64,000 bases of DNA from a virus (lineage: Duplodnaviria; Caudoviricetes). Under the pieces are notes generated by a model. The model ran no database searches. It saw only the letters and a list, made by a program, of their open reading frames with translations, and was not told the DNA's origin. Numbering within the stretch: position 1 is the first letter of the stretch; each line of letters begins with the position of its first letter. Made by a program: the position numbers and the translations under genes. The stretch lies in the IMG/VR virus record IMGVR_UViG_3300009161_000021; one strand, given 5' to 3'. Shown in pieces: positions 33,601-56,266 of the stretch.

Positions 33601-33692
33601 CCAATCACACCGGCGGAGCGGCCCGAGGGTTGAACCTCCGTTACACCACCGGTGCTATCGATCTCGTTTAGTGTTATGCCTGGCGCAGCCAT
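30675..33692 (-). CDS. Contractile tail sheath protein, paralogue 1
   Basis: 1005 aa; MAAPGITLNEID, AAYFPDV, WSAPAGYTRA, INPI, GQRT, ALDRVNVRRLL, LLFEPN, GKIYLQPTKTAEFI. Confidence 0.92.
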   Translation of the reverse strand: MAAPGITLNEIDSTGGVTEVQPSGRSAGVIGTATQGTAFVPITFANNTQFTTEFGNPDANYHAPFALYQWLSNASAGTYVRVLGAGDGNKRTTGATNAGSVTNAGFVVGSRKVQVSNGQLGNNPYATAGGLEGRTYFLGCYMSESAGSWLLSEPGIQTSTAAQPIVRGVLFAASGVQITVSSSAPGATSDIYSLAATTASPAKGWFTGSLDLRSGEQTFVLFLNGHTDSAGYPSILTASFNPTSDSYFGAKFNSNPLLLEEHGYVLYNHYDVLDAFAVPTGSGVAAEAAIRRVSTSAAVEEIVFCLSGSQSRNNGTTTFPNYDGFEDRYGHPMTPYVTSQNFGGTRYNLFKIHARGDGAATNELYRVAIESIKYPAAGSYATFTVKILSFTGEDGYATVYETYSGCDLDPDSDNFIGKKIGDQNTYFDFDRTADAQKIIEEGLYGKVSRRVRVELSDEVINKVIPSNTIPVGSRGLYHLVTSGSGFMSTGSSGPSAHLNVPLTNAREAPVFFRRSINVGDVAGGANATGESKLYWGPQFGLYNSTTRPNDGVSTSTETLGAGGLSSYTKYFPKYHTTYQNPWVGDNDGAATVNGSVVDADLFNRNLFTLENIQVQTSSGGTLDRDRWDEAVYQRDGILDASLGGRFIDTTIDFPSSTPSSYLKFVTFMQGGFDGLNIFDADKFYMRDAAARREMDYSNQGQLNGPTVAAYRKAVDIMGNKTYSDISVLAIPDTRHPAITDYALSAMQTKFDALYIADVELKDDNNNFVTASINAGSSYPNVNVAFTSTRFKNRSLNSSFGAAYFPDVNVSVDPGTGVAVSTRLPASTLVLGAYAQNDRIGFTWSAPAGYTRAVIPGNSLSTILNNDNINTVYDAGINPIVSVPGANIVINGQRTTLVEGSALDRVNVRRLLIEVRRRVKAVAYGLLFEPNRESTIARFNAAVTPIMKQIQSQRGVERYRVQIDTTTTTQADIENSTIRGKIYLQPTKTAEFISIDFEATNASTFV

Positions 33693-33731: not shown

Positions 33732-36700
33732 TTAGACGAACTCGACGCCCGCCGGTGTGATGATAAAGTCGACAGCGATGAATTCTACCGCTCTTGTTGG
33801 AACCACAACAATTCGACCATTCAACCTGTACGCGGCAACATCGGCAGCAGTGTTATTCGTTGAATCCATGACGATCCTGAACTGCTCGATACCAGCCTGC
33901 GCCTTGATGAGACTCAGAAGCGGGGTGGCTCGATCGATGAAAGACTGCCTCGTTGTCGCGTCGTTGGGCTCGAACAGAAGGCCACGTGCCACGTCCTGGA
34001 TAACGCGCTTGAGCTCGAGGAAGAGCCTGCGAACGTTGACCCTATCGAAGGCCGACTTCGAAACCTGGAGTGTCTTCTGTCCGAAGATAACGAAACCGTT
34101 ACCAGGGAAGGTCGCGATTGGGTTAATTCTGTTATCGTACAGGTAGTCGCGATCGGATGTGTTAAGCCTTACTTCAACGTTGGTGACGAAGTCAAGAGCA
34201 GCCCTGTTGAATCCAGCCGGCGCGTACCATGGGTAGGCGACTCTGTCGCTGTACGCAAGAGCGCCGAGAGCAGCGATGGAGGCGGGCGCCTTGACCCTTC
34301 TGTTCGTTGTTGTATCATTGACGAACACATCCGGGAAGTAGGTAGCGACGTAGTTGTTGTTGAGTGACCTTGCGGTAACAGCGTCAGCGGTCTTCGTGAC
34401 GTTCGGCTTCAACGCAGAATCCTCAAAGATTCTAACATTTGCGTCGGAGTAAGCCGGAGCATCAAGAACGTACATTCCAAGAGCGTAGGACGAAAGCCTG
34501 CGAGCGAGGTAGTCGGTCACGAGCGGCTCGCGGACGCCGGGCGTTGCGATCACATTGACATTGACGGTGTACTTGTCAGTCATGAGCTTCGAAGCGACCC
34601 TGTAGGAGTTCACAGCGTTGTTGCTAAGGCTGCTGCCCGCCGGGTCGTAACCGAGACCTGATCTTGCGATCGGCTCAACACCACCTGCCGCGAGCCCACC
34701 GGACTCCGTTGAGGTGGCACGATCCCCGAGCTTCGCAGAAGCTGCGTCGAGGATGTTGACTCCGTCGAATCCACCGTAGAACATCGTCGAGAACTTTGCG
34801 TACTCAGCGAACTTGTTGAATGTGTTCGCCGAACCTGAAAGCAGTGAGGCGAAGGTGATTCGGCTTCCACCAAGAGCGGCATCAGCGATCCTGTAGTCCG
34901 TTGTGCTCGGAACTCCATTCCTGATGTAAGCCGTCTCCTTCATGTGAGCTTCGACAGTTCCCGTGACATCCGTTAGTGATGTGTTGGAAAGTGCGACCCT
35001 AGCGAGAGTGAACTTATTCGCGTTGAAGATATCGGCATCGGATCCAGTCACGAGAGCGTCGAGCTTCTGGATTCCCTGCATCTTCGAGTAGGAAAGGATA
35101 AGAGGATTGAACTCGGTCCCATCGTTGGAGTTCATCACGGCGCTTGAGATGGAAGCTGTCGCAGGCAGACGCTCGAACTTCACGCCCCAGTGGTAGCGTG
35201 AGTCAGGAATCTCGAGGAGACCCGGCGATCCGATGTAGGCAGATCCGTCCACGGTTCCCTTCGTCGCCTTGAAGCGGAACGGAAGCGGTGGAACGATCGA
35301 GCCCGTGAGGGTTGTCGCAACGGAGCTGCTGCAGTAAAGTCTCGGGAGAGCGTTCGCACCAGCACCGTAGGTTCTCGTTCCCTCGGTGAGAGCCGAGGAA
35401 GTGTCGGTCAGGGTCTGCGATGTTCTGACAACCGGGATACCCTTGAATCCGAACGGAAGGGCGCTTGCGGGAACAACACCCGTCGTGAGACCAGCTGCCG
35501 TGATGACCCTGATCCTGCGACTTGCGTTCGGGAAGTTTCCATTGATCACAAGACGCTGCTCGGACTCGTCGCTTGCGTCGAAGTTGTAAGAGACCTTGAG
35601 GTCACCGATCTTCTTAGCGACGTAGTTCTGGCTCGCTGGGTTGATGTCGCAACCTGCGAAGGTCTCCAGAATCTGGGGAGAAGTGTCAGAGTCGTACAGG
35701 TCGCGAACGTTGACATCGAAGGTGCCGTACGGATTTCTCGGATCCGTCGAGGCCTTCACGTTGGAGATCGAGACCTTGTAGAGAGCGTTTCCTGACTCTC
35801 CGTCGGTGAGAGTCTCAAAGTAGAAGAGCTCATGCTCGAGGCTTCCGAAGGGCTGCGAGATGATCGCGGGAGTCCGGGCTGTCGTGTAACGTGTGTCGAA
35901 CCGCCCAAAATTCTGGAGGTATGTGTTCGACGATCCTGAGGCGACCGCGACGCAGCTGTCACCCGTGACATCGAGACCGACGAGCTCGTCCTCGATCGGG
36001 AAGTCGAGGTAGAGCACGTGCTGCTCAGCCTGGAACTTCTTCGGGTCCGTGTTGAAGACCTTACCGAAGTAATCATTCGCGCTCGGGTTGAGAGACGCTG
36101 TCAGGATTCGAAGCCCGCTGTAGCCGTCTGTCGTCCCGAAAGATGAGCCCTGCGAGCTCGAGATCACGAACTTGAACTTCTTGTAGTTCGAGGAAGCAGC
36201 ATTGAGATCCGTTGAGGCAACATCATCGATCACCGAGCCGCCGCCGGACCACTGGGAGTTTGCTCCCGTCATGTCGAGAACCATTCCTCGCGCACCGGTC
36301 GGGAACATGAGAACGCCACGAACGATGTTCAGGGTGTCTCCGATGGAGGGCGGGTTGAAGCTTGGGTTCTCGCTGAAAATCGGGAATCCCTTCCACTCAG
36401 AAGGTGTGGTTGAGCTTGCTGGGATCGAGTGACGGGCGACAAGGAACTGCACGGCTCCTGTCTTACGGGCGTCGCCAGCCGGGAGGGCGACGGTTGATCC
36501 TGTCACCTTGAATCCAGCGTTGCGCACCACACCCTGAGTCAGGGTCGTTGCGACGTCGGACATGCTCGCGTTTGCACCCGCGCCGAGGACGCGGATGAAG
36601 GTGAGGGCACCCTTGTGCTTCAGCCACTCATTGGCGGCGTAAGTTGCAGGACGATCCGGGTCAAGGCCGCCGAAGCGAGCCGAAAAATCCGAAAAAGACG

Positions 36701-36842
36701 ACACGGTCGTCGGCACAAAGGCCGGCCCCGAGGCTGCGGCTCCGATGAGCCCACCTGGGACGCCCGTCGGTTGCGCGCCCGGGGCGGTAAGCTCTATCTC
36801 CCGTTCAAAGAATCCAGGAGAGCGAAAGATTTGTTCCGACAT
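33732..36842 (-). CDS. Contractile tail sheath protein, paralogue 2
   Basis: 1036 aa; FRSPGFFEREI, GPAFVPT, ATYFPDV, PWYAPAGFNRA, RINPIATFP, FGQKTLQ, DRVNVRRL, LLFEPND, VPTRAVEFI. Confidence 0.92.
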   Translation of the reverse strand: MSEQIFRSPGFFEREIELTAPGAQPTGVPGGLIGAAASGPAFVPTTVSSFSDFSARFGGLDPDRPATYAANEWLKHKGALTFIRVLGAGANASMSDVATTLTQGVVRNAGFKVTGSTVALPAGDARKTGAVQFLVARHSIPASSTTPSEWKGFPIFSENPSFNPPSIGDTLNIVRGVLMFPTGARGMVLDMTGANSQWSGGGSVIDDVASTDLNAASSNYKKFKFVISSSQGSSFGTTDGYSGLRILTASLNPSANDYFGKVFNTDPKKFQAEQHVLYLDFPIEDELVGLDVTGDSCVAVASGSSNTYLQNFGRFDTRYTTARTPAIISQPFGSLEHELFYFETLTDGESGNALYKVSISNVKASTDPRNPYGTFDVNVRDLYDSDTSPQILETFAGCDINPASQNYVAKKIGDLKVSYNFDASDESEQRLVINGNFPNASRRIRVITAAGLTTGVVPASALPFGFKGIPVVRTSQTLTDTSSALTEGTRTYGAGANALPRLYCSSSVATTLTGSIVPPLPFRFKATKGTVDGSAYIGSPGLLEIPDSRYHWGVKFERLPATASISSAVMNSNDGTEFNPLILSYSKMQGIQKLDALVTGSDADIFNANKFTLARVALSNTSLTDVTGTVEAHMKETAYIRNGVPSTTDYRIADAALGGSRITFASLLSGSANTFNKFAEYAKFSTMFYGGFDGVNILDAASAKLGDRATSTESGGLAAGGVEPIARSGLGYDPAGSSLSNNAVNSYRVASKLMTDKYTVNVNVIATPGVREPLVTDYLARRLSSYALGMYVLDAPAYSDANVRIFEDSALKPNVTKTADAVTARSLNNNYVATYFPDVFVNDTTTNRRVKAPASIAALGALAYSDRVAYPWYAPAGFNRAALDFVTNVEVRLNTSDRDYLYDNRINPIATFPGNGFVIFGQKTLQVSKSAFDRVNVRRLFLELKRVIQDVARGLLFEPNDATTRQSFIDRATPLLSLIKAQAGIEQFRIVMDSTNNTAADVAAYRLNGRIVVVPTRAVEFIAVDFIITPAGVEFV

Positions 36843-38818: not shown

Positions 38819-39991
38819 TCACCCGATCGTTATGACACGACCCATCGGTATCGGTGTCGCCTTGAGTATCTTCTGAACATTGTCAACCTCTGCTGCCTTC
38901 GTCTCGATGAGCTTGTTGTAAGTCATCGAGTCCAGCATTTCCTTGAGATCTGTTCGAAGCTTATCTTTCTCCTCTTTCGCCGATGACTTCAGATCTCCGC
39001 CGTCCAGTTGAAGCTCACCCCCCGGGATCGGAACGGACCCAAACTTGGACCTGATCATACCCAAAAGCTCCTTGGCGAGGGCAAGCGCGTACTGCCGGAC
39101 CCACTGACGAGCCATGGAATTCACCCTCGCGTAAACGAAATTACCGTAGGGAACGTTGGATAGATTTGAGACACCCGACACCGAGGCATCCGGTATCGAT
39201 GGGTTTAACGGGTTGGATTCGAATCCCACACGGACCCAGAGCTTCAGGGGGTTTGTCGCTGTCGGTGATGGGAATATCCTGATCTTCGTTCCCGTTACAC
39301 GGTAGCTGTAGTTCGAACGACGGACCCTGTTCGAGATGTTCATCTGACCGCCACGGAGGATGTCCTCGAACACCGGCAGCACATAAAAGACGGTCTCTGG
39401 CGTGAACGACTCGAAGCTGAACTCGTTGTTGAGGTAGTTGATGGCCGATGTCGTATCGAAGAATCGATACGCTGCGGATGGGTTGAAGTGCATGATCTCG
39501 AAGATCCTCATCTTTCGATGCTCTGGATTTAGAGATGAGCTCACGACAGGTGTTCCGGTCGATGGATCCACAAGATCAGTGTAGAGATCATAATCCTGCA
39601 CATTCTGACGAAGCTGAATCGCGCCCGAAACTGCATTGTAGGTTCCACCGAGACCAGCCTCGACGGCGTAGGGCTCAGCCAAACGCACGATGTAGTTGAG
39701 GGTGTCACGAGGAAGCTTCTGGGTTGCCTCATCGAGACTTCCAGTCTGCATGCCGAGAAGCGAGAGCAGCTGGCTCTTCGCCTGGTACTGATTAACGATC
39801 GATCCGTATTCGAGGAAAGCTTCCTCGAAACATGACCAAATCTGCTTCTTCGTCAACTCGACAGACAGAACGTCATCTCCAAGACGACGTTTCACAAATG
39901 CCACCATCGCATCAGCTTCAGCCTGAAACGCGGTGTCGGAATCGAAAAAACCGAATGGAGTTGGGTTTAAGGTGGTCGTGAATGTTGACAT
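38819..39991 (-). CDS. Neck / head-tail adaptor protein (T4 gp13-like)
   Basis: VKRRLGDDVLSVEL, WVRQYALALAKELLGMIRSKF, PIPGGELQLDG. Confidence 0.75.
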   Translation of the reverse strand: MSTFTTTLNPTPFGFFDSDTAFQAEADAMVAFVKRRLGDDVLSVELTKKQIWSCFEEAFLEYGSIVNQYQAKSQLLSLLGMQTGSLDEATQKLPRDTLNYIVRLAEPYAVEAGLGGTYNAVSGAIQLRQNVQDYDLYTDLVDPSTGTPVVSSSLNPEHRKMRIFEIMHFNPSAAYRFFDTTSAINYLNNEFSFESFTPETVFYVLPVFEDILRGGQMNISNRVRRSNYSYRVTGTKIRIFPSPTATNPLKLWVRVGFESNPLNPSIPDASVSGVSNLSNVPYGNFVYARVNSMARQWVRQYALALAKELLGMIRSKFGSVPIPGGELQLDGGDLKSSAKEEKDKLRTDLKEMLDSMTYNKLIETKAAEVDNVQKILKATPIPMGRVITIG

Positions 39992-40060: not shown

Positions 40061-41128
40061 TTACTTCACGCTGGCCTGATTGGCCAAGTACGTCTTCTTC
40101 GCGGACTGTGAGGTCATGGCACCTGCAACCCCGACCATGGTTCCACCGCCCAGAGCGTACGGCTTCTTGGCAAGGATCAGGAGGCTGTCAGCCGTTGGGT
40201 TGTTGACGATGTAGATGAATCTGCTAGCCTCACGATTGGTGCCAGATGTCATCTCAACCGCGCTGTCCTCTCCCTTCGTTATGTCACCTGTAGCCGGAAC
40301 TCCTAGATGATTTGCGAATAGGACTTTGATCTCGGTCAGCTTCTGGATGATCATGCTTAACTCACTGCGGGTCGCAACGGTTCCAACAGATCTCGCCGTC
40401 TGCGCTGCATTTGCGAGGAGGACTGCGAACCGCAGGTTATCGCGGGCGAACAGCATCTTCTGGTCAAAGATGTTTCTGCCGTTTGTGGTATCCTGATACT
40501 GATCGATCGCCGTCTGGACCGACCTTGCCAGCAGGTTCATGACCGTGTTCACATCGCGCGCGGTCTGATCCTGACCGATCGGAGTGTTGGGCGCCTGAAC
40601 CTGCAATGTCGACTGCACAGGAGCCGTGTCGATGCCAGTCTTACCCGTGATCGCGGCCTGCTTTCCAATGAGAGCTGCAATAACATTTCGACCTACGACG
40701 CCGTCCACTGGAAGGCTAGCGGCGTTCTGGAAGGCTATCGTCGCTTTCTGAGTGTTAGGACCGTAGTCACCGTCGACCTTGAATCCTTTCGGCAGTGGAA
40801 TGCCTGAGGCGTTCATGGCAAGCTGCAGAAGCTCCTGATAGATGCTGACAGCGGTTCCCTTGGATCCGGTCTTTAAGGTGACCTGTCCCTGCCCTGCACC
40901 GGCGCCAGCATGAACCTGTAGGAACGTCGGGTCATTACGCATCCTATCGGCTAGGCTCACAGGAATCGTCCAGTTTCCAGCGTTGATCGGGGTACCTGGC
41001 ATTCCCAAGGGAATTCCCTGTCCGACCTTGATCGCACCGGAAATAGTGCGTGTGGCTGCCTGCTCTCTCATCGCTCTGTGAGCTTCCTCGCGTATGATAC
41101 GACGCAGCGTGGACTCAGAAATTAACAT
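40061..41128 (-). CDS. Peptidoglycan-binding-domain protein with the N-terminal shared helix motif
   Basis: LKTGSKGTAVSIYQELL...VDGDYGPNTQKATIAFQ..ASLPVDGVVG is a PG_binding_1 pattern; N-terminus MLISESTLRRIIREE. Confidence 0.8.
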   Translation of the reverse strand: MLISESTLRRIIREEAHRAMREQAATRTISGAIKVGQGIPLGMPGTPINAGNWTIPVSLADRMRNDPTFLQVHAGAGAGQGQVTLKTGSKGTAVSIYQELLQLAMNASGIPLPKGFKVDGDYGPNTQKATIAFQNAASLPVDGVVGRNVIAALIGKQAAITGKTGIDTAPVQSTLQVQAPNTPIGQDQTARDVNTVMNLLARSVQTAIDQYQDTTNGRNIFDQKMLFARDNLRFAVLLANAAQTARSVGTVATRSELSMIIQKLTEIKVLFANHLGVPATGDITKGEDSAVEMTSGTNREASRFIYIVNNPTADSLLILAKKPYALGGGTMVGVAGAMTSQSAKKTYLANQASVK

Positions 41129-41131
41129 GAT

Positions 41132-42934
41132 TTATCTCCCTTTCTTGTATTTATTTTTGTTCTTGACACTTTCAAAAAGAATCTTAAGCAGAGATGACCT
41201 TCTGCGGGAATCGACAATCGCTCCGTGCTCACCCTTCAGGATGGACCAGTACTTGTCCTTCATCTCCGGACTCAAGGTCTGGGGCACGTACTGGTCGAAT
41301 GACTGCTTATCATCGGCGGCGAGAAACTGCCTCATCCTTGTCCCTGAGATCTGGACGGTCTCAGCTCTCGATACCGGACGCTGCTCGAATTTCTCTATGA
41401 CAGCTGGATCCCTGATGTTATCAGCCATCTTCGAGGGTGAGTATTTCACCCGAGCGTCCTCATCGTCAGAGTAGAACACGAACTTGCTGACAACGTTCTT
41501 CAGCTGACGCATCTTATCGACAGCGAGGCTCAGCGGAGATTCCGGTGAGATGATGAGGGTCGCATTCGGAAAATCACGGTGAAACTGGGGCTCCAGCACC
41601 GCCTTCCACGCGTCGATCATCACGCCCGGTGGCAGCTCATCGCGGCCAGCGGTCGAAGTGATTATGAGAGCCTCGTCGCACTCCTGAGATGCGAGGCTGA
41701 TCATCTGCCAGTGACCAGCGTGGACGGGCTTTCCAGAGACTACGAAGATTCCAATGCTGATTCCGTTCTGCGTCCCAATCTCGAGACGCTTCATCACCTG
41801 CGTCTTCGTTGTGAGGAACAGGTCCTCCTGACGTTGTATGAGAGTCTTCGGATGATTTAGAGCACCCAATCGATTCGAGATCGCAGCGTCGAAGTAACAC
41901 TCCGCGTGGATCCTCTCGAAAATTTCATCGAGATCGCTCTCGGGCACGTTTCGACGCTGGGCGGGAGCGTGCTCAGACGAGATCTCATTGGCGATGCTAA
42001 CGATGCCGTTCCAGTAAGCCTGTTCGTCCTCCTTCGTCGCAGCCCTAAACTTCTGCTTGATCGCCTGTCGATGCTCAACATCGTGCTGGTCAAAACGAAG
42101 TGCCTTGTACAGGGCCTGGGTGGCCGACGTCCTAAAGACAGATCCCTCTGCTGGTGAGCGCTCGCTCTCTGTTGAGAGCGATGTATCGAAGTCAGAGAAT
42201 AAATCGTAGATAGAATCGACTATCTTCAGAACTCGATCAGGACCAGAGTCTCCGTAAGCTGCTCTTAGCTTTGAATCAAGGTCGGCAGCCCGTCGCTCGA
42301 TGGAAGCGCTCTTGATGCCCGACTTCAATCCCTGGAATGACTCGAGGTTACCTTCGAAGAGAACGGGATATGTCTGAACTCCGAGCAACCTGGCATACTC
42401 CTCGAGCTTTGCCTCATCGTTCTGCGGAGTGATGTTCGAGACAAGATAGGTTCCTGTCACCTTGTACCTTGAAGGACCGAAGAGGGTCAGGAAGATCCCA
42501 TGCTTCCGAGGATACTCACGGCTGATCGTTGGCTTCCGCTGAACAAACTCGAGAAAGAATTCGGTCCCGGGAGGAATCGCAGCGGTGTTTCTATGAACCT
42601 GCGCAAGGTGAGAGTGAACGAGAGAGTACTGAGCTGTTCCGGATGATCCTGAACGAACCTCCTCCTCGCGTGCAGCAAGGCCGCGTGCCTCACCCGGATA
42701 GATGACGTTGCCCTTGTAAGCGATGTACCAATTCTTGGTGTAATCTTCTGGATCGAACGCGTTGTTTCGACGGAGGAGCGTGAGCTTCGTGCCGTCGATC
42801 TTCTCTACGATCTTGATGCTGGGATCACTCAGGAACACCTGGGCTTTCTTTATATCATTGGCCCGCGCGCGTGGAGACGCGTCAGGACGAACCATGACCT
42901 TCTTGAGATCTTCGATCGAGATATCGGTTGACAT
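41132..42934 (-). CDS. Fusion of an RNA-ligase-like (Rnl2/ATP-grasp) adenylyltransferase domain and an HxGH class I nucleotidyltransferase domain
   Basis: Ligase motifs I EKIDG, III EFFLEF, IV AEGSVF, V LYKA. C-domain VVSGKPVHAGH and ISGTRMR (HxGH and SxTxxR signatures of the NMNAT/PPAT/cytidylyltransferase fold). Confidence 0.7.
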   Translation of the reverse strand: MSTDISIEDLKKVMVRPDASPRARANDIKKAQVFLSDPSIKIVEKIDGTKLTLLRRNNAFDPEDYTKNWYIAYKGNVIYPGEARGLAAREEEVRSGSSGTAQYSLVHSHLAQVHRNTAAIPPGTEFFLEFVQRKPTISREYPRKHGIFLTLFGPSRYKVTGTYLVSNITPQNDEAKLEEYARLLGVQTYPVLFEGNLESFQGLKSGIKSASIERRAADLDSKLRAAYGDSGPDRVLKIVDSIYDLFSDFDTSLSTESERSPAEGSVFRTSATQALYKALRFDQHDVEHRQAIKQKFRAATKEDEQAYWNGIVSIANEISSEHAPAQRRNVPESDLDEIFERIHAECYFDAAISNRLGALNHPKTLIQRQEDLFLTTKTQVMKRLEIGTQNGISIGIFVVSGKPVHAGHWQMISLASQECDEALIITSTAGRDELPPGVMIDAWKAVLEPQFHRDFPNATLIISPESPLSLAVDKMRQLKNVVSKFVFYSDDEDARVKYSPSKMADNIRDPAVIEKFEQRPVSRAETVQISGTRMRQFLAADDKQSFDQYVPQTLSPEMKDKYWSILKGEHGAIVDSRRRSSLLKILFESVKNKNKYKKGR

Positions 42935-44469
42935 CAGCTTCCCCAGATTGCAGATTCTATGAGACGATTGAGACGATAAGCTTTCGATTCATCGACTTCA
43001 CCTGGAGCTGTGTCGTCCTCAGTGAATCCTTCCTCTCCACGAACCTTGTACTTCGCGTAGAAGCTTGCCTTCATACCCTCGATGTCCATCGTGGAGGATT
43101 CAGCTTCGGGAAGGATTTGCCTGAAGACCTCAAGGATCTTTTCCTTGACGCTCATATCTTCGTTCTTGTCAGTTGCTGAAATTTGCTGGGCAACTGCACC
43201 GAAGAGCCTGATTGCCATCTCCTCGTAAACCCTAACAATTTCAGGTGGAGTCATCCTGTTTTTCATTATATCGAGCGTACCGAGGAATGATCCAAAGTCC
43301 TCCATCTCTTTTTCCGTAGGCGGCGGATTATCTCCGAACATCCCTGTGAATATTTGTCTGATATCACGAATCGCTTGGGTTCTCTCAACTCGTTTCAAGT
43401 ACTTGTAGACATCATTCCCGTTGTGCTGCCAGTCGAGCTTCCTGTACCTGTCGGAGTATCCAGTCACAAGATCGAGGGATTTCATGGGTCTCAAACGAGC
43501 GGGCTTCTTCTCAGCTGCTGAGAGCTCAGCCTTGACCTCGGTCTCAGCTTTACGGCGAGCGGTCGCCGGGCTTATTCGAGGCTGCTGTGATTCGATCTCG
43601 GACGCACGAGCCTGGATCTTGCTCTCGATCTCCTCGGCGCTGGGTGGCACGTACTTCCTGTCCTTGGTCATCGAGATCTTCGGATTCTCGGCCGAGGCTG
43701 CGTCCGTGGCAAGACGTGCATCGATGGGTGGGGGAGAACGAACTGCAGCAAGCGAGAATAGAAGGATCTTGTGCGCGAGACCTTTCACACCCGCCTCGAT
43801 GTCTCTCCAGGAGGACGAGTATGAAAACTTTGCCCACGGAGAGGGTCGACCGCCCTCGTACTCAGATCCTTCGAAGTCAATCTGAAAGAACGTATCCCCC
43901 TCACCGGGAGGAGCGGAGGGATCCCATGTGTAAGCGAAGAGAGCGTTGATCTGGTGCTGACCCGGGCTCTTTTTGTTGTGACCGACGTACGCAATTCTTG
44001 GGGTGAGCTGCTCATCCTCACGACGGTTGAGCGTTGAAAAGAGCCCGTTCATCTTATCAACTGGAACCGTGAGGTCGATGTCCCCCACTGTCGGCTTAAA
44101 CTCTAGGAACTTCTCGTCCGACAGAGTCTCTGGAGGGGCGAAGAGATGCGCTGATGATCCGTTAAAGGCGAATCCGGAACCCAGGACATCATCGCGTTGG
44201 GCTCGATCCCAAAGCGGCTCACCGTGGTCGTTGTTGAACTCATCATCGAGGACCTGAAGCATCTCAATGACGTCGCGTCTCAGATCCTGACGATTTATCC
44301 TGCCGGATCGAAGATCTATTTTTTCAGCAAAAGCAGATCGACCGCGGAACTGCCTGACCTGGTCAGGACCCGAAACTAGGCCCGTCTCTGGGTCTCGAAC
44401 GAGTGCTCTGGTGTTGCCCCCCTCATTGACGGGAGCAGCACCGAACATGAACTTTGAGATGCTAAACAA
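42934..44469 (-). CDS. Pol-beta-superfamily nucleotidyltransferase-like protein
   Basis: NGSS...VGDIDLTV (GS plus DxD) and a third acidic residue in FQIDFE; N-terminal VNE/GGN. Confidence 0.65.
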   Translation of the reverse strand: MFSISKFMFGAAPVNEGGNTRALVRDPETGLVSGPDQVRQFRGRSAFAEKIDLRSGRINRQDLRRDVIEMLQVLDDEFNNDHGEPLWDRAQRDDVLGSGFAFNGSSAHLFAPPETLSDEKFLEFKPTVGDIDLTVPVDKMNGLFSTLNRREDEQLTPRIAYVGHNKKSPGQHQINALFAYTWDPSAPPGEGDTFFQIDFEGSEYEGGRPSPWAKFSYSSSWRDIEAGVKGLAHKILLFSLAAVRSPPPIDARLATDAASAENPKISMTKDRKYVPPSAEEIESKIQARASEIESQQPRISPATARRKAETEVKAELSAAEKKPARLRPMKSLDLVTGYSDRYRKLDWQHNGNDVYKYLKRVERTQAIRDIRQIFTGMFGDNPPPTEKEMEDFGSFLGTLDIMKNRMTPPEIVRVYEEMAIRLFGAVAQQISATDKNEDMSVKEKILEVFRQILPEAESSTMDIEGMKASFYAKYKVRGEEGFTEDDTAPGEVDESKAYRLNRLIESAIWGS

Positions 44470-44485: not shown

Positions 44486-45448
44486 TCAGATGCCCCAGTT
44501 GATCGAGATCTTCCGACGGCCTTCCGTCAATGTACCCCCTGAGCCTCTTGCTATGGGTGCGGTGTCCCTGCGTTGGAGAGCAGCACCATTCACAGTTATA
44601 GACGTCGGAAGAGCCAGCTTCTCATTGACTTTTATCACGTTGGGGTCTGGTTTGTTAAGAGCAGCTGCAAGCGCTTTGTAAGCTGGAGGGGTTCCATTTC
44701 CGTAGAAACGAAGGCAGATCTGCGACAGAGTATCTCCTCTTACGACGGTGTACGTCTTCGTTCCAGGAGTTGGTGTCGGACCAGGACCTGGAGTTGGTGT
44801 GGGAGAAGGTGCCGGAGCGACGGCGCCGCCGGGCTTCCCGCCCGCTTTTTTCCACTTCATGATCGCCGCGCTAATAAAACGCCAGAAGAAATCTGTTCCC
44901 AGAGCGTACGTTCTGTCCTCTCTCTCTAGATTGTCCAGAGCCGGGAAAGCTTCCTTGTACTTGTCGTTAACGATCTTATACAAGCTATCCGCATTGAGAG
45001 TTCCAGACTTAGCAGCGGAGAGAACTTGATCGAATATCTCCTGCTTGTAAGCAGACGGAAGGTCATCAAGGTCACCGTCGTCTTGACCCTCCATTCCACC
45101 TGAAAGTGGGCCCAACGCATCGACATTCATATCACAGTAAAGAAGTGGATCAGTTCCCGTTAGGGTCGAATTGCTAGCTGAATCACGACCCGTCTCTGCC
45201 GTTCCACCTGCGCCGAACATAATATCTTTGAGGTCAGCTTCAAGCTGCGCGTCCGCTGCAGCAGCAGGGTCGACGGGAGCGGAAGGCGCTGCCGGTGTTG
45301 CTGGCGCGGCTGGTGCTGCTTGAGCTGGTGCTGGTGCAGATACGCTCGCTGTTCCTGTATCACCGTCGTCTGCAGGTGCTTCAAACAATCTAACGCGACG
45401 TGATTCCTCACGAAGGATCTGGCGAAGTCTCGCCTCGGTAATCTTCAT
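44486..45448 (-). CDS. LysM-domain protein with the N-terminal shared helix motif and Pro/Ala/Thr linkers
   Basis: YTVVRGDTLSQICLRFYG...NKPDPNVIKVNEKLALP; linker PSPTPTPGPGPTPTPG; N-terminus MKITEARLRQILREES. Confidence 0.8.
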   Translation of the reverse strand: MKITEARLRQILREESRRVRLFEAPADDGDTGTASVSAPAPAQAAPAAPATPAAPSAPVDPAAAADAQLEADLKDIMFGAGGTAETGRDSASNSTLTGTDPLLYCDMNVDALGPLSGGMEGQDDGDLDDLPSAYKQEIFDQVLSAAKSGTLNADSLYKIVNDKYKEAFPALDNLEREDRTYALGTDFFWRFISAAIMKWKKAGGKPGGAVAPAPSPTPTPGPGPTPTPGTKTYTVVRGDTLSQICLRFYGNGTPPAYKALAAALNKPDPNVIKVNEKLALPTSITVNGAALQRRDTAPIARGSGGTLTEGRRKISINWGI

Positions 45449-45561: not shown

Positions 45562-47448
45562 TCAGATGATGTTGAGGTCGAGGCAGGTGACCGTACCGTA
45601 GAAGTCCGACCTGACCATCTTCTTGCCGTAGCGAGTCATGACACCCTTTCTCGGGGTGAAGTCCTCAGGCGCGAAGATCGTCGGGGTGACAATCAGCGGG
45701 ACGTACGGAGCGTAGACGTAGCCGGTCTCGAGGTAGCTTCCGCCCTTGAAACCAACAAGGATCTTGTTGCGGGGGAAGTACGGATCCTTGTACACCGTGA
45801 AGCGGTTGCTCAGGGTACCAACCTTCTCGGCGCCGATCGAGAACGGAGCGCCGACCTGGCCGGAGCCGTCGATGCTGTAGCTCGGGCGGTAGTAGGTCGA
45901 GGCCTCGAGGATCGTGGCGACGTCCGGACCGACCACGATGAAGTTCGCGGAGCCGCGAAGCGTCTTGCGGTGGATCTCGTTGGCGACGTCGATGATCGTC
46001 TCGGTGAGGGTCTCGTACCACTCGCGGACGGTACCGGTGAACATCGGGCCGATGGTACCAGCGCCGCCGGTCGTCTGGAAGACGCCCGTGGTCTTGTTGA
46101 CGAACTTACCAGGAGCGCGGCTCCAGAAGTAGTTCGCGCCGGAGGCCTGCACGAGGAGGTCGTTGAGGATCTCGCGATCCAGCTCGAGGGCAATCTGCTC
46201 GGAGAGGATCTGAGTAAGCTCAACCTCAGCGTCGATGCTGTGGTAAGCGTTCAGATCCTGCGCGAGCTCCGGAGACCAGCGAGCGCGGAGCTTGCGGGTC
46301 GTCGCGGTGACGGCGAGGGACTCGATCTTGATGTCGATCTCGGGGATGACCGGGGAGGGGGTCGTGCCGAAGTTCGACTCGAAGACCGGGATGGTCGCGG
46401 TGGAGCCGGTTGAGGTCTCGACGTCCAGTGAGGAGGCGAGCGGGTAGCTGAGCCTCATCTGACCCGAGCCGCTTGACATGTCGGTGGTGAGGGCACCAGA
46501 GACGACGGTCAGGAGGTGGGTTCCGGAGAGCGGGGTGGGGGTGAAGACGCCGCCAGCCCAAATGCCGATCTGGTTCAGACGACGAAGGTTGAGGACACCG
46601 CTGCCGCCCTGGAATGCCTCGCCGAACACCGTAGCGTCGCCATAGGTCGTCCTCGGGAAGAGAGCGAAATCCTTGGCGAGGCTCTGGTCAGTGGAAGCCG
46701 AGCAAGCGCCGAGCTGCACGACCGCGAACTTGAAGGCGCCGGTTCCGACACCGTTGCCCGGGTTGACGCCCGCCTCGATGAGGGAGGTCATCTGCGGGTC
46801 GAATCCGAGGAGACGACCGTCGGTGCCCGTCGCGAAAGCGAACTTTGTCGCCGCGAAAGCTCCGTTACCACCGAAAGCGCCTGAGGCCTCGACCGTGACA
46901 TTCGTGAGAGCGTGCACGCGGCTGTAAGCGGTTCCGACGAGATCGTACATACCACCCACGGCGAGAGATCCGCTCTGGATTCCCTTACCAACCGGGTTGT
47001 TGTAGATCGACTGGCCGGTGCTGTAGGTCGCCTGGGTGCTATTCGGGGTTCCGTCAACGCCTGAGTTACCACCGCGGTCGTTACCGTAGGTGTAATCCAG
47101 GTAGAACAGGAGACCGGATGGGAGGCTCATTGGCTGGATCGAAACGAGCTCGTTCGCCACTAGACCACCGAAGACGCGGCGGACGATGGGGAACGCGATG
47201 TTCGAGAAGCCGCGGATGTCGCCACCGCCGGAGGTGGAACCGCCACCGGATGACATCGAGTTGCTCTCGCGGAGGAGGTTGGCAGTCTGGTTCTCGAGGA
47301 GGCGAGCCATGTTCTCGCGATTGACGCCCTCAAGGCCACGAAGCAGGCCGGTGCGGCTCCACTTCTCGACGAGACGGCCGTTCTCCGCCCCGACGTCGCG
47401 CCCGCGGATTCCTTCCGAGAGCTGCTCTAGTGTGAAAGTCTTTGACAT
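45562..47448 (-). CDS. Major capsid protein (T4 gp23-like)
   Basis: KWSRTGLL, AFPIVRRVFGGL, VSIQPMSLPSGLLFYL, TRKLRARWSPELAQDL, EIDAE..LSEQIALELDREIL, GYVYAPYVPL, GVMTRYG; strongly biased codons. Confidence 0.95.
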   Translation of the reverse strand: MSKTFTLEQLSEGIRGRDVGAENGRLVEKWSRTGLLRGLEGVNRENMARLLENQTANLLRESNSMSSGGGSTSGGGDIRGFSNIAFPIVRRVFGGLVANELVSIQPMSLPSGLLFYLDYTYGNDRGGNSGVDGTPNSTQATYSTGQSIYNNPVGKGIQSGSLAVGGMYDLVGTAYSRVHALTNVTVEASGAFGGNGAFAATKFAFATGTDGRLLGFDPQMTSLIEAGVNPGNGVGTGAFKFAVVQLGACSASTDQSLAKDFALFPRTTYGDATVFGEAFQGGSGVLNLRRLNQIGIWAGGVFTPTPLSGTHLLTVVSGALTTDMSSGSGQMRLSYPLASSLDVETSTGSTATIPVFESNFGTTPSPVIPEIDIKIESLAVTATTRKLRARWSPELAQDLNAYHSIDAEVELTQILSEQIALELDREILNDLLVQASGANYFWSRAPGKFVNKTTGVFQTTGGAGTIGPMFTGTVREWYETLTETIIDVANEIHRKTLRGSANFIVVGPDVATILEASTYYRPSYSIDGSGQVGAPFSIGAEKVGTLSNRFTVYKDPYFPRNKILVGFKGGSYLETGYVYAPYVPLIVTPTIFAPEDFTPRKGVMTRYGKKMVRSDFYGTVTCLDLNII

Positions 47449-49272: not shown

Positions 49273-49857
49273 TCACGGGTCTTTTTCGAGCTCTTGCTCC
49301 AAATGAATTGCACGTATGAGCCTGCGGAGCCTGCTGGCGGTCAGCTCATCCGAATCCGGGATCTCTGCAAGGGTGTATGCTGGTTCCATGGATCCCGCGT
49401 CCCTGAGTGGAAGCGAGCTGGAGTATCCGGCCTTGGACCCAGAAAGTGAGATTCGAGCGGGAGCTGGTCTTATCGATGGACCGTCAGCACCGACCCCGAG
49501 GACGCCCTGCTTATTCTTATACAGATCAGGCATCGGCGAGATACCACGACCCGTGGTCTGCTCGTGCATTCTGAAATCGGGACTGACCATTCTTCTGTTA
49601 TCGGCCGCACGATCCGCGTAGGAGTCCCAACGGATGTGACCCTGTCCAGCCTTGTTACCGATCGCGACCTGCGTTCGCAGATCTTCCTCGTCCTCAAGAT
49701 CTTCCTCATCATCAACGTCATCTCGAACTATCTCGATATAGGGCCATGAGCCCTGTGACATCCGAGGCAAATCACGACGCCCGTCCGTGCCGTATCCCAG
49801 GCCGGTGCGAGCGTCGTGATTCGGATTGTTAGCCTCGTCGAGGCGACGACGTGACAT
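49273..49857 (-). CDS. Hypothetical protein in the head module (C-terminal shared helix motif)
   Basis: 194 aa; ends ...ELTASRLRRLIRAIHLEQELEKDP. Confidence 0.65.
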   Translation of the reverse strand: MSRRRLDEANNPNHDARTGLGYGTDGRRDLPRMSQGSWPYIEIVRDDVDDEEDLEDEEDLRTQVAIGNKAGQGHIRWDSYADRAADNRRMVSPDFRMHEQTTGRGISPMPDLYKNKQGVLGVGADGPSIRPAPARISLSGSKAGYSSSLPLRDAGSMEPAYTLAEIPDSDELTASRLRRLIRAIHLEQELEKDP

Positions 49858-50839: not shown

Positions 50840-51292
50840 TCACTTCTTTTTTTCTGCCGAGAAAGCAAGTTCAGCCCAATTTGACGACCCTTCAAAAAGT
50901 GACATGGGATCAACATCTGGAACCCCCTGGGCGACTGACATTGCGGCAGCTGGATTCCGTTCAGCGGTCATCTGGGCTGGTAGCGTGTTTCGTGCAGTGT
51001 CCTCGAATATCTGCTGCATGATCCCGCGTTCCTCCTTCGGAAATTCGGACGCAAGGTTCGCGACAGCAGGTATTGGAGCTCTGCGACCTTGCGCTTGCTC
51101 TGCGACTCTGCTCGCCCCTGCTGAGAATGCTATGCTATCGAGATGCTTCTTCGGTGCTGGCGCGGGTCGGTTCAGAGATTCGCGTTGGGGACGAGCAGGA
51201 GGCTCCTCACCGCCCCGGAGACCCTCGAGAAGAACCTCCAAGATGCACTCTTTAACAATGTCCTTTAACTCAGCCTTAGTCAACGATGCCAT
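50840..51292 (-). CDS. Head-module hypothetical protein with the N-terminal shared helix motif
   Basis: MASLTKAELKDIVKECILEVLLEG; coupled to the protease gene stop. Confidence 0.7.
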   Translation of the reverse strand: MASLTKAELKDIVKECILEVLLEGLRGGEEPPARPQRESLNRPAPAPKKHLDSIAFSAGASRVAEQAQGRRAPIPAVANLASEFPKEERGIMQQIFEDTARNTLPAQMTAERNPAAAMSVAQGVPDVDPMSLFEGSSNWAELAFSAEKKK

Positions 51293-51903
51293 TAAGCCTT
51301 CCAGGTTAGAATATCGTTGAATATTCTATCAATCCGATCGCTTCGATTAAATGTTCTTGAAAGTTCCGAGGCTTTTACTTCACGACCTTCCCTCATCATG
51401 AAAGCGCCGGGGGTGCTCGGCTCCGAAACGAAATCCCAGCAGATAAGCTGGAAGTCATCCTGCACGACCTGGGAGTCACCCGACTTGCTGGTCGATCCGA
51501 CACCGCGGGAAGAGATTCCAAGCGTGACGCCAGCCTCGACAAGGCTTTGAAGGATCTTGCCGCAGGGAGTGTCAAGGATCTCAACTGTTCCATAGCAGAC
51601 GTTTCCCTCCATGTAAGCTTCCCTGATGATGTGACTCACCTTTTTCAGCTCCACTACGGACGAATCGGGGTGATCGCATTCGCCCAGCGCTCGATTCTCT
51701 CGAATGAATTTCTGGTAGTTTCTTACCTCACGTTCGAGAATATCACGAGGATAGATTCTCCCGTTCTGGTTCAGTGTTTCAGCCTTCTGAAGGATTCCCT
51801 TCATGATAAGGCGACCACCGCTCTCCTTCGCCTCTCTGATCGATTTGTTATCGTAAGAGAATGGCATCCATTCCGTCAAAAGTGTCAGGGATCTATCACT
51901 CAT
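51292..51903 (-). CDS. Prohead maturation protease (T4 gp21-like)
   Basis: GILQKAETLNQNGRIYP, ALGECDHP (His), VSH, LGISSRGVGS (Ser), WDFVSEPST. Confidence 0.95.
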   Translation of the reverse strand: MSDRSLTLLTEWMPFSYDNKSIREAKESGGRLIMKGILQKAETLNQNGRIYPRDILEREVRNYQKFIRENRALGECDHPDSSVVELKKVSHIIREAYMEGNVCYGTVEILDTPCGKILQSLVEAGVTLGISSRGVGSTSKSGDSQVVQDDFQLICWDFVSEPSTPGAFMMREGREVKASELSRTFNRSDRIDRIFNDILTWKA

Positions 51904-52732
51904 CTTTTGCCTCTAATTCTTGCTGTAGTTGCGTTAGCTGCATGAACTTAACGATTCCTGCGTCATCCAACTTCGTGACGTCAGCGCTTTCGACAATTTT
52001 GAAGACGTGATCGATCTTCTCAAGGAGCACCTGACTCTTTGTCGACTCTTTAAGACGTTGCAGTCCCCTGCTCGTCCTTCTTTTTATATTGTCGAGCATA
52101 GAAGCATCAACTTTGCCATGAACATAATCTCGAATCAGCTGATGCTGAACCTCGGTTAACTTTCCAGCCCACTTCTTCTCGAACTTTTCGTTCATGATCT
52201 TTACTGAAAGAGGAGAAACGCGCTCGTTCTTCAGCTCGGTCAGAACAGGCGTCTCTGATTTGTCGGAACCGATCCACTCAAGCAGCTTCTGCTCATACTG
52301 AATGACTCGACCCAGGCTTGCCTCATCGTCCTTGCGCCAATCATTCATCAGAGTCTGAACCGTGGCGTAGAGTCTGTAGTTCTTAACGTGCTGGTTGAAG
52401 AACTTGACATCATCTATCGATTTGTTTATCTCCCTAATCAGCTGTGATTTTTCAATTTCAAGCTGACGCGTTGAGAACATATTCGAGCCACGTTTGGCTT
52501 CCTGCATAATGCGAAGACCAACATTCTCAGATTTCACGGTAGTGTTCAGCAACGCCTGAAACAACCTGTGCTCTTTGAATATCTCGGTCCCGGGCTTGTA
52601 GTACTTCTTAATGATTCTCGAGCATTCCTGGACGGTCTCGAAGTCATTATCGATGAGAGCGGACGATGCTTTTGAGAGCAGCTGCTCGTAGATGATCCCG
52701 ACGTTTCTTTTTTTGTTGTGAGAGTTACTCAT
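51896..52732 (-). CDS. Head-assembly-associated hypothetical protein
   Basis: Lies between portal and protease. The likely start is MSNSHNKKRNVGIIYE at 52732, overlapping the portal stop; the track ORF starts at 52780. Confidence 0.7.
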   Translation of the reverse strand: MSNSHNKKRNVGIIYEQLLSKASSALIDNDFETVQECSRIIKKYYKPGTEIFKEHRLFQALLNTTVKSENVGLRIMQEAKRGSNMFSTRQLEIEKSQLIREINKSIDDVKFFNQHVKNYRLYATVQTLMNDWRKDDEASLGRVIQYEQKLLEWIGSDKSETPVLTELKNERVSPLSVKIMNEKFEKKWAGKLTEVQHQLIRDYVHGKVDASMLDNIKRRTSRGLQRLKESTKSQVLLEKIDHVFKIVESADVTKLDDAGIVKFMQLTQLQQELEAKDE

Positions 52733-54670: not shown

Positions 54671-56266
54671 TTAGCCCCTGATGAGCCACCCAAAATGAGC
54701 GTAAGGGTTGGCATTTCCAACCGCGCTCTTCGGGGCTGCGTCCATCATGATCGGAGACATGGTGTTTCTTGCGTGAGGAACAAACGGCTGCTCGTCATGG
54801 TCGCGTTTGTTGACCGCAAACGCTGAAAGCATCGCTCGAGTCATTTCCTGACTTTGCTTAGAGTAATCGATGTTGGTGTCGTAAAGCCATATCCCGATCG
54901 CGAGAGCCATCACGAGATCATCGTTGTATCCTTTCATCGCTTTTGCAGTCTGCCCGATCCAAGTGAATGTCTTGAGCTCCTCAGACATCCGCGTGGATCT
55001 GATCCTGATCTGCTTGTTTCGAATAACCTCTTCGAGCTTTGTGAGAATCTTTGTTCTATTGGAAGGACCGGTCGTGAATCCGATGTTGGCGATGTCCTCA
55101 GAGCCAGCCGTGGCTCCCATGTACATGTACTTCTTGTCCTTGTAGTACAAGTTTGGATACCCAAGCTCTTTGAGCTTCATGCAGACGGCGTAACCGTAGC
55201 TGTTATTCTCTGGGCAGACAAGGGCTTTTCCGTATCTCAGACCCACCTCGTTAAGAACAACGGCAAATTGGTCTGGTGGAACCTTGCCCTTGAACTCGCA
55301 AACCTGCTCGCCTGCCGTTGTGTCGATGACGTGAAAGCTTGAGTAGTCTGCTCCGTCTCCTCGAGCGACGTCCGCAGAGACAATGTACTTGTGATCCGGC
55401 AGGAAGTAACGCCAGACCCACACTCCCATCTCTGGACCCCATCTTTCGATGGGAGTTTGCGTATGCGAGATGATGTACTCCAGATCGTTCGCATTGAGAA
55501 ACGTATCACCTGAGGCTGCGAAGTCGCAAAGAAGCTCCTGCGCAACCTGCTTGCGGGTCATATTCTTCGACTCGTTGTCGAACCATACTTGATCACGCTC
55601 TGGATGGACGTCCCAGGGAAGCTTAATCGCGTTGAACTCGTTTAGACCGGCCTCTCCCTCAACGTAGAGCTTGTGATACTGGCCGCCGACACCGTTAGGA
55701 GTGGAGAGAACGATAGCACGACCACCTGTTGACAGGGTCGGATACAGACCGGTCCAGAGCTCATCGAAGTTTCCAATGAATGCAGCTTCGTCAACGATAA
55801 GGAGAGTAAGAGCTTCTGATCGACCTGCGTCGTCCGACGTTGGAATCGCTTTAACGGACGATCCGTTGCTGAATTCGACGACTTGCTTCGTGTCCGACTT
55901 CACTGTCGGCATAATCAACCAAGACGGAAGATTCTGAAGCATGACCTTCACCTTCTTGATGAAGTTCTGAGCGACAGCAAGCTTCGTGGCAATGATTAGA
56001 ATTGCCTTGTCTTTGTAAAAGAGCGCGAGCCAGAGAGCGTAAGCGGCTGCGAGAGTCGAGATTCCTAGCTGTCTCGATTTGAGAATGACGTTGAACCTGT
56101 GCTCCTCGAATTGAGTCAAGCAGTCATCTTGGAATTTGTACGTGTCAAATCCCACAAGGCCTCGGGTTGGGTGCTGAATTTTCACGTACTTGTTGATGAA
56201 GTACGATGAATTCTTACCACAAGCGACAATCTCGGCGATCTGCTTTTCTTTCGAGAGCACAGCCAT
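54671..56266 (-). CDS. Terminase large subunit (T4 gp17-like)
   Basis: Walker A LKSRQLGIS, Walker B LIVDEAAF, LSTPNG, nuclease domain SADVARGDGADYS and DDLVMALAI. Confidence 0.95.
   Translation of the reverse strand: MAVLSKEKQIAEIVACGKNSSYFINKYVKIQHPTRGLVGFDTYKFQDDCLTQFEEHRFNVILKSRQLGISTLAAAYALWLALFYKDKAILIIATKLAVAQNFIKKVKVMLQNLPSWLIMPTVKSDTKQVVEFSNGSSVKAIPTSDDAGRSEALTLLIVDEAAFIGNFDELWTGLYPTLSTGGRAIVLSTPNGVGGQYHKLYVEGEAGLNEFNAIKLPWDVHPERDQVWFDNESKNMTRKQVAQELLCDFAASGDTFLNANDLEYIISHTQTPIERWGPEMGVWVWRYFLPDHKYIVSADVARGDGADYSSFHVIDTTAGEQVCEFKGKVPPDQFAVVLNEVGLRYGKALVCPENNSYGYAVCMKLKELGYPNLYYKDKKYMYMGATAGSEDIANIGFTTGPSNRTKILTKLEEVIRNKQIRIRSTRMSEELKTFTWIGQTAKAMKGYNDDLVMALAIGIWLYDTNIDYSKQSQEMTRAMLSAFAVNKRDHDEQPFVPHARNTMSPIMMDAAPKSAVGNANPYAHFGWLIRG

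Follow-up and report, generated by a model that had tools for sequence, protein, structure and literature searches.

Two adjoining genes on the minus strand of a 64,000-nucleotide (nt) stretch of Caudoviricetes DNA (IMG/VR record IMGVR_UViG_3300009161_000021; the whole stretch is called the window) encode predicted nucleotidyltransferases of three different folds, and the folds, linkage, possible packaging and proposed chemistry of this pair are described here. One gene (42934..44469, (-)) encodes P0002, a protein of 511 amino acids (aa) assigned by its model and fold matches to the Pol-beta-superfamily nucleotidyltransferases. The other (41132..42934, (-)) encodes P0001, 600 aa long, in which an Rnl2-like ligase domain is predicted to be fused to a helical domain and a HIGH-signature nucleotidyltransferase. 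P0002 starts at a TTG codon with an AAGGAG Shine-Dalgarno sequence 6 nt upstream, and its homologues begin with MFSI... at the same position. The two genes overlap in the sequence TGATG, the P0001 start lying inside the P0002 stop codon, which bears out the gene coupling with a boundary at 42934 that an earlier reading of the letters alone (the sequence-only reading) had claimed. Only 3 nt separate the end of P0001 from the start of the next gene.

Folds of the two proteins

AlphaFold models were made from alignments of metagenomic homologues, 31 for P0001 (A1) and 40 for P0002 (A2), to which the conservation figures below refer, and reached a predicted local distance difference test score (pLDDT) of 86.9 for P0001 and 87.6 for P0002. 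Structure searches with these models recovered all three folds that the sequence-only reading had named. The catalytic residues of both families were invariant across 25–87% identity. Single-sequence searches of the PDB with P0001 and P0002 returned nothing.

The N-terminal part of P0001 (aa 1 to about 295; 42050..42934, (-)) is, by its model, a predicted Rnl2-like ATP-dependent ligase domain, of the type that forms a covalent lysine–nucleoside monophosphate (NMP) intermediate. Its Foldseek matches included T4 Rnl2 (2hvr, E 3.6e-7; also 2hvq and 1s68), Trl1, and archaeal and Naegleria RNA ligases, with E-values from 3.6e-7 to 2e-4, and all ligase-domain matches in the top 50 were RNA ligases. 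Motif I, EKIDG (42791..42805, (-)), contains the predicted AMP-accepting K45 and does not vary, even in the homologues from Vibrio and Campylobacter phages. The invariant residues comprise E44, K45, D47 and G48 (KxDG), E129 and F130 (motif III), E263 and G264 (motif IV) and K277, the last being a single invariant lysine in motif V instead of KxK. An insertion of ~100 residues lies between the region of Y157, which we take to be motif IIIa, and motif IV, and the domain that follows the ligase domain is helical in the model. The RNA-ligase-like motifs noticed in the sequence were thus upheld by both KxDG invariance and the T4 Rnl2 structure match. Sequence profiles were less telling. The Pfam RNA_ligase family (PF09414) matched 6/31 homologues at E <= 0.1, one of them over the gathering cut-off (27.5 bits vs 27), and did not match P0001 itself; a profile of the ligase domain only found nothing among PDB sequences; and hhalign of that profile with T4 RnlB aligned the motifs, EKIDG with EKIHG, but at a probability <1% that is not significant alone.

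P0001 aa 391–571 (41222..41764, (-)) form, by structural alignment (VIA-align) and profile match, a predicted PPAT/NMNAT-like HIGH-signature nucleotidyltransferase domain. Its HxGH motif, H405-A-G-H408 (41711..41722, (-)), has an invariant H408, with H405 and G407 conserved in at least 90% of the homologues. The second signature, ISGTRMR (ISxTxxR, I529–R535; 41330..41350, (-)), has S530 and R535 invariant, as is R523. The whole of E. coli PPAT was superposed on the domain (Z 13.1, 150/157 residues, root-mean-square deviation 2.6 Å), so that the HxGH nucleotidyltransferase called by the sequence-only reading is supported by motifs and fold. NadD and NadM could also be superposed, and the fold matches do not discriminate among PPAT, NadD and NadM. 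The A1 family profile found PPAT in the PDB at E 3e-5, PHROG gave a weak match of the domain to an NMNAT family, and identity to PPAT/NMNAT enzymes is about 10–15%. The HIGH domain always lies C-terminal to a ligase domain in the P0001 family. The Campylobacter phage copies have the first histidine of HxGH replaced (…LTKAH). Papers on a cyanophage 'cytidylyltransferase', followed as a lead, concern the unrelated TagD.

P0002 is, by motifs and the palm fold of its model, a predicted Pol-beta-superfamily nucleotidyltransferase. The 'GS' motif (G104-S105; 44155..44160, (-)) and the catalytic carboxylate pair in GDIDL (G129, D130, D132; 44071..44085, (-)) are invariant, the third carboxylate strand, QIDFE (Q196, D198, F199, E200; 43870..43884, (-)), is invariant or nearly so, and an invariant GGN (G17, G18, N19; 44413..44421, (-)) marks the start of the mature or leaderless protein. 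The spacing from GS to DxD is 25 residues, which we judge to be above what is typical for the superfamily. The top seven PDB matches in VIA-align were all family X polymerases (Pol beta, lambda, mu, TdT and African swine fever virus (ASFV) Pol X; Z 6.8–7.2), the ASFV Pol X match spanning 164/176 residues, and cGAS-like, OAS and TUTase structures followed marginally below (Z 6.0–6.7). Because Pol X at Z ~7 barely tops these, only the superfamily, not a family, was assigned. Foldseek gave E-values of about 0.03 against the PDB; its best match in AFDB was a cluster named 'Polymerase nucleotidyl transferase domain' (E 1e-5, probability 1.0), and weak matches to the AbiEii/AbiGii family were insignificant (E 0.17). 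The Pol-beta-like fold that had been read from GS..GDID..QIDF is therefore borne out by motif invariance together with structure matches. Members of the family have about 400–510 aa, with the N-terminal GGN, an inserted coiled coil and a beta domain, and fall into 759 clusters at 50% identity, viral by Atlas.

Linkage of the two families

Gene neighbourhoods were compared in 39 loci, namely 36 IMG/VR loci recovered with the P0001 profile plus L003–L005. In all 39 the P0001 and P0002 families share a strand; most loci have the two genes side by side and the others no more than 5 kb apart, and the linkage on which the sequence-only reading depended is kept in every one of these loci. Three distinct gene orders occur among these loci. 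In the window's clade the order is major capsid protein, a variable gene, P0002, P0001, a second variable gene, adaptor and sheath; a second lineage has P0002-like, P0001-like and Metallophos_2 genes, and a third has P0001-like, Metallophos_2 and P0002-like genes. A fourth lineage carries both proteins in one open reading frame (ORF) of about 960 aa (L036–L040, e.g. L039:9893-12778), and single-ORF fusions in the reverse order were also found (P0196, P0213, P0251). A free N-terminal glycine is not required, because GGN is internal in the fused form (…LNIS-GGN). The two genes are 2 kb apart in Vibrio phages of the phiKT1024/Va1 type and about 65 kb apart in Campylobacter Firehammervirus. A Metallophos_2 phosphoesterase accompanies the pair in 12/39 loci (L003–L005, L030–L035 and L041 among them). 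Outside the window's clade the usual neighbours of the module are not head genes but those for gp32, UvsX, a 5'-3' exonuclease, DnaB, Pol III alpha, RNR and ThyX.

We conclude that the two genes are a functionally coupled pair in a widespread, phage-only module, and we hold the folds and the coupling together with high confidence. The sequence-only reading knew of no established function for the combination, which appears correct for the literature searched; it had met the combination in a head-neck module, but the combination is peculiar neither to this phage nor to head modules. That literature describes neither of the families, nor their fusion or module, nor, above all, the head-packaged form.

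Some further observations concern the module elsewhere. Pfam scans of six long P0002-family fusions were uninformative save for one with Amidoligase_2 and a second NTP_transf_2 domain. In two contigs of the jumbo-phage lineage with Pol III alpha, which have a leaderless three-gene module, a separate canonical RNA_ligase (PF09414) ORF of 449 aa lies far off (G004:C1:200967-201467 and G005:C1:81531-82031).

Leader, terminal helices and head-gene setting

P0002 begins with a 16-aa leader, MFSISKFMFGAAPVNE (44422..44469, (-)), which ends in a predicted prohead-protease site, V-N-E/GGN, and is disordered in the model, as are residues 1–17 in all. Among 221 members of the family, 91 start directly with MGGN, and in 118 the invariant GGN is preceded by a leader; in six leader-bearing homologues Met stands just before GGN, which suggests mis-called starts. 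Leaders range from 2 to 45 residues (median 16) and are otherwise unrelated between lineages (MFSIAKFIFG..., MKTISSLLRQLIREQ..., and MKLSELMFILE in the Campylobacter phage), and still P1 is E in 111/118 and P3 is L, I or V in 113/118. T4 gp21 prefers L or I at P3. The prohead proteases of T4 and related giant phages cut after Glu (PMC5694885; PMC3012670), and the capsid-targeting leaders of T4 have 10–20 residues (PMC5694885). A T4 gp21-like prohead protease (Peptidase_S77; Pfam E 7.4e-26), the presumed processing enzyme, is encoded in the window (51292..51903, (-)). The suggestion that VNE/GGN is a plausible protease site is strengthened considerably by these comparative data. P0001 has no N-terminal leader and solely a C-terminal L-F-E site.

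An N-terminus resembling the P0002 leader (MFSISKF...VNE/GGN) was seen in a 398-aa ORF with a weak DNA_pol_A match (15156-16352, (-)), which begins MLSISRYALNSPKNLVFE/GG...; no similarity to P0002 was found beyond the N-terminus. In L003 a similar small gene of the PolA-like kind immediately precedes the module on its upstream side.

The shared terminal helix claimed in the sequence-only reading was recognised in both proteins, as LNRLIES in P0002 and LKILFES in P0001. In P0002 a detached, low-pLDDT helix with the motif LNRLIE/S (aa 495–510; 42940..42987, (-)) follows a disordered linker and is conserved in the close clade; in P0001 a similarly detached helix (pLDDT 54–61) with the motif LKILFE/S (aa 580–598; 41141..41197, (-)) also follows a disordered linker and is missing in several distant homologues. 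In each model the final ~25 residues come out as disordered or as detached helices of low confidence. A regular expression for the motif, defined post hoc, gave 7 matches in the 40 window proteins, all in the terminal ~35 residues, with 0.36 matches expected overall and 0.044 near a terminus in shuffled sequences. Matches fell at residues 7–14 in ORFs 2-703 and 722-2287 and in the PG_binding_1 and LysM proteins, and near the C-terminus in 10570-11532. The amphipathic helix, of the form L-[RK]-x-[IL]-[IL]-[RE]-[ES], is common to otherwise unrelated proteins and ends in an (L/I)-x-E site, and in the LysM and PG_binding_1 proteins it stands at residues 8–14, where a T4-style targeting leader would lie. 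It may act as a signal for capsid targeting and cleavage that works from either terminus of a protein. Looser matches, seen by eye, lie N-terminally in 50840-51292 (-) and C-terminally in 722-2287 (-) and 49273-49857 (-). ORF 722-2287 (-) encodes 521 aa with LRV/HEAT repeats, the helix motif at its N-terminus and the looser one near its C-terminus; the truncated ORF 2-703 (-) adjoins it with a near-identical N-terminus and may be its paralogue.

Both proteins have homologues in a virion proteome. In purified virions of Campylobacter phage vB_CcoM-IBB_35, gene 1-56 was reported at 17% coverage (PMC3322345 Table S2), and genes 2-25 and 2-24 at 2.9% and 23.7% (PMC3322345 Tables S1, S2). Gene 1-56 (contig 1, 39251-40417) was found here to be a P0002 homologue with the leader MKLSELMFILE/GGN, and genes 2-25 and 2-24 together make up a split P0001 homologue. 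The latter (L045:3016-4450) was deposited as ORFs of 339 and 97 aa, phage CPt10 has one 503-aa gene, and the split in IBB_35 is probably a pyrosequencing frameshift. By analogy with this relative, packaging is plausible for the window's clade, which lends substance to the virion packaging that the sequence-only reading had proposed, and we consider packaging of the pair likely. What is new here is this evidence for encapsidation, to which the pair appears adapted.

The genes surrounding the pair form a T4-like head and neck region. The order on the minus strand is TerL (54671-56266, (-)), portal (52725-54632, (-)), the prohead protease, several unknown genes, a gp23-like major capsid protein (45562..47448, (-); Pfam Gp23, E 3.3e-76), a LysM protein with an N-terminal LRQILRE helix (44486..45448, (-)), P0002, P0001, a PG_binding_1 protein with an N-terminal LRRIIRE helix (40061..41128, (-)), an adaptor-like protein (38819-39991, (-)) and sheath genes. 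This context agrees with the claimed position between the LysM/capsid genes and the neck genes; the LysM and PG_binding_1 genes, which flank the pair, vary among relatives. A 1036-aa ORF (33732-36842, (-)) matches tail sheath families, and its tandem neighbour of 1005 aa (30675-33692, (-)), which resembles it at the N-terminus and in its C-terminal ending, may be a paralogue of the sheath. A 1040-aa ORF (56940-60062, (-)) with an N-terminal Metallophos domain (SbcD/Mre11-like) and SMC_N/SbcC Walker B domains appears to be a fused gp47-gp46-type nuclease, and ThyX and a glutamine-synthetase-like gene (3179-3847, (-), and 4049-5083, (-)) belong to the window's replication and metabolism region. 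A nucleotide search of the phage collection gave no match, and a protein identical to P0001 was found on a 206 kb contig. The source is probably a jumbo phage, because related contigs of 143–172 kb are only about half complete by CheckV (about 43–51%).

Proposed function and relation to known systems

In what follows we infer the substrate and the order of steps, and also packaging in this phage and ejection. The overall chemistry would be the healing, filling and sealing of broken nucleic-acid ends, most probably those of RNA, for example tRNA cut by nucleases. Where a phosphoesterase is present, it would clean 3' ends; the Pol-beta enzyme, like RlaP, would restore the missing nucleotide or nucleotides at the 3'-OH; and sealing by the ligase would run via a Lys45-AMP intermediate. 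The HIGH domain would adenylylate a phosphate, e.g. that of a 5'-phosphate end or of a cofactor. Its role is the least certain step of the proposed chemistry, and direct adenylylation of the 5'-phosphate end, the same bond that PPAT and NMNAT make, would be one chemically natural option. In the window's clade the pair would have moved into the head module and been equipped for encapsidation: the gp21-like protease would remove the 16-residue leader of P0002 at VNE/GGN, both proteins carry a flexible C-terminal amphipathic helix with an (L/I)-x-E site, of a kind found in other head-region proteins as well, and the enzymes would be carried inside the capsid and reach the host cell together with the DNA.

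Among the candidate roles, repair of RNA or nucleic-acid ends fits best, because of the conserved Metallophos_2 partner and the analogy to RlaP with RNA ligases. RlaP proteins are Pol-beta nucleotidyltransferases tied to RNA ligases that add 1–2 NMP to damaged RNA 3' ends (PMC7824862; bioRxiv 10.64898/2025.12.29.696909), and CthPnkp has a metallophosphoesterase for 3' healing. That the pair is a packaged nucleic-acid end-repair kit, acting most probably on RNA, is in our judgement an evenly balanced proposition, and RNA as the substrate, taken by itself, is a tentative assignment that falls a little short of even.

Several results weigh against this interpretation. The module has no polynucleotide kinase, and no tRNA genes were found near it in the window and 15 further loci. 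The Metallophos_2 partner was found neither in the window nor in three 143–172 kb contigs of the same clade, which are 43–51% complete, so that the phosphoesterase typical of Pnkp-type systems is absent from this clade as far as the contigs reach. Direct Pfam scans of P0002 and P0001 gave no match at gathering score, and PF10127 (RlaP) matched neither P0002 nor any of its 40 relatives at E <= 0.1, and five related contigs had no match to it. Structurally, P0002 is closest to DNA polymerases, and in other lineages the module adjoins genes of DNA replication and nucleotide metabolism. Concerning packaging, the ligase part was covered to only 2.9% in IBB_35 virions, the presence of a leader does not track with protease type (leaderless MGGN lineages encode S77 proteases too), and for this uncultivated phage the case for packaging consists of a sequence pattern and the proteome of one relative.

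The same enzymes acting on DNA would constitute a packaged gap-filling and nick-sealing kit like ASFV Pol X with its ligase or bacterial LigD, which would repair or process nicks and ends of the incoming phage genome upon its entry into the cell. Co-delivery with DNA would suit such a role, P0002 matches Pol beta, lambda, mu, TdT and ASFV Pol X best, the module stands beside replication genes from gp32 to ThyX in other lineages, and G004 and G005 carry an additional canonical RNA_ligase elsewhere. However, no DNA ligase appears in the top 50 matches of the ligase domain, which is followed in the models by a helical region and not by the OB domain expected after the ligase domain of a DNA ligase, and the narrow lead of Pol X over cGAS-like, OAS and TUTase structures means that the fold is not specific to DNA polymerases; we regard a DNA substrate as unlikely. 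A similarly low probability is given to the two proteins being late cytoplasmic enzymes that are not packaged, the leader and helices serving e.g. partner docking and the proximity of head genes being incidental. Head gene 24 of T4 has rnlB as its direct neighbour, and to our knowledge the rnlB product has not been reported as a virion component; moreover, leaderless MGGN homologues in other lineages end in a similar helix (ESISRYIRILFGR), as does P0059, so that the helix is not restricted to head-module copies. A complex prediction for the homologous pair P0059 + P0118 gave no answer (score 0.00) and speaks neither for nor against binding. Such an account leaves aside the cut-site pattern, near-universal at the leader end across lineages whose leaders are otherwise unrelated, the homologues in purified IBB_35 virions, and the helix motif of neighbouring head-region proteins, which is N-terminal there like a T4 targeting leader.

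Neither of two other roles, NAD+ rebuilding and protein nucleotidylation, found specific support. As a host-takeover enzyme, like T4 Alt or the MenT/AbiEii-type nucleotidyltransferases, the packaged Pol-beta protein, perhaps with the HIGH domain, would covalently nucleotidylate proteins of the host or the 3' ends of tRNA right after injection. Protein AMPylases and toxins that modify tRNA share the Pol-beta fold, and the virion-packaging evidence and the AFDB matches to AbiEii/AbiGii point the same way, but those matches are insignificant, repeated tight linkage to or fusion with a ligase would be unexpected for a stand-alone effector, and leaderless versions lie among replication genes; this role is quite improbable. 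Least probable of all is that the HxGH domain is an NMN adenylyltransferase countering NAD-depleting defences, with the other domains accessory. The C-terminal domain does match NMNAT, NadD and NadM as well as PPAT, with the PHROG match to NMNAT besides, and phage NAD+ salvage with HIGH nucleotidyltransferases is an established precedent (PMC7824862; PMC9503650). Known phage NAD+ pathways have NadM or NadR with NadV, or Nudix or kinase fusions; neither a nicotinamide phosphoribosyltransferase nor a Nudix or kinase fusion was among the Pfam matches near the module, although no dedicated search was run. A cofactor role would also leave unexplained the fused ligase with its invariant lysine and the Pol-beta and phosphoesterase partners, and the Campylobacter phage homologue has a degenerate first histidine in HxGH.

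Packaged end repair has a bolder form, which we consider rather unlikely: a new class of virion-delivered repair enzymes, loaded by leader and helix, injected, and acting before phage gene expression on cleaved tRNA or other RNA or on the entering DNA, in which a new adenylylation of nucleic-acid 5'-phosphates or other ends by the HIGH domain would replace kinase-type healing. Known packaged phage proteins include T4 Alt, the internal proteins, P1 Dar and virion RNA polymerases, and we know of no ligase or polymerase-like enzyme among them. Should the pair be injected, ready-made chemistry for repairing nucleic acids would arrive with the phage, which would bear on escape from abortive-infection nucleases, and the joint chemistry of a ligase fused to a HIGH adenylyltransferase could be new. 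Both families are large, phage-specific and wholly uncharacterised. The split between MGGN and (L/I/V)-x-E/GGN starts would be a natural experiment on the recruitment of cytoplasmic enzymes as capsid cargo, and the leaders may be portable targeting signals for T4-like capsids.

Among known systems, T4 RNA ligase 2 (RnlB, gp24.1, PF09414) matches the N-terminal domain of P0001 better than any other structure, shares the KxDG/KxHG lysine motif and the acidic residues of motifs III and IV, and has its gene next to head genes 23 and 24. P0001 differs in having no significant sequence match to it, in falling below the Pfam cut-off, in the ~100-residue insertion and single motif V lysine, and in the fusion to a HIGH nucleotidyltransferase, which we know from no characterised Rnl. 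RlaP (PF10127, including T4 NrdC.11) is likewise a Pol-beta-fold nucleotidyltransferase genomically coupled to RNA ligase in phages; P0002 is larger (about 400–510 aa), with the invariant GGN, the inserted coiled coil and the beta domain, and has no PF10127 match. PPAT and NMNAT (PF01467) share the fold and the HxGH and ISxTxxR motifs with P0001, whose domain is ligase-fused, only ~10–15% identical and without linked CoA or NAD+ pathway partners.

The T4 internal proteins and Alt resemble P0002 in the short, predicted S77-removable leader ending in aliphatic-x-Glu, and here too enzymes would be delivered with the DNA. The cargo would be a ligase/nucleotidyltransferase pair, not an ADP-ribosyltransferase or a restriction inhibitor, and, unlike T4 cargo, P0001 is leaderless. 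The C-terminal helices of both proteins may be the targeting element, for which we know of no T4 precedent. The logic of a healing enzyme with a sealing ligase is that of Pnkp/Hen1, T4 Pnk-Rnl1 and Trl1 (LIG-KIN-CPD), and when P0001 is taken over its whole length, Trl1 LIG-KIN ranks second among the Foldseek matches. The module differs from these systems in having neither a kinase domain nor a methyltransferase, and in P0001 it is the HIGH nucleotidyltransferase that occupies the position of KIN.

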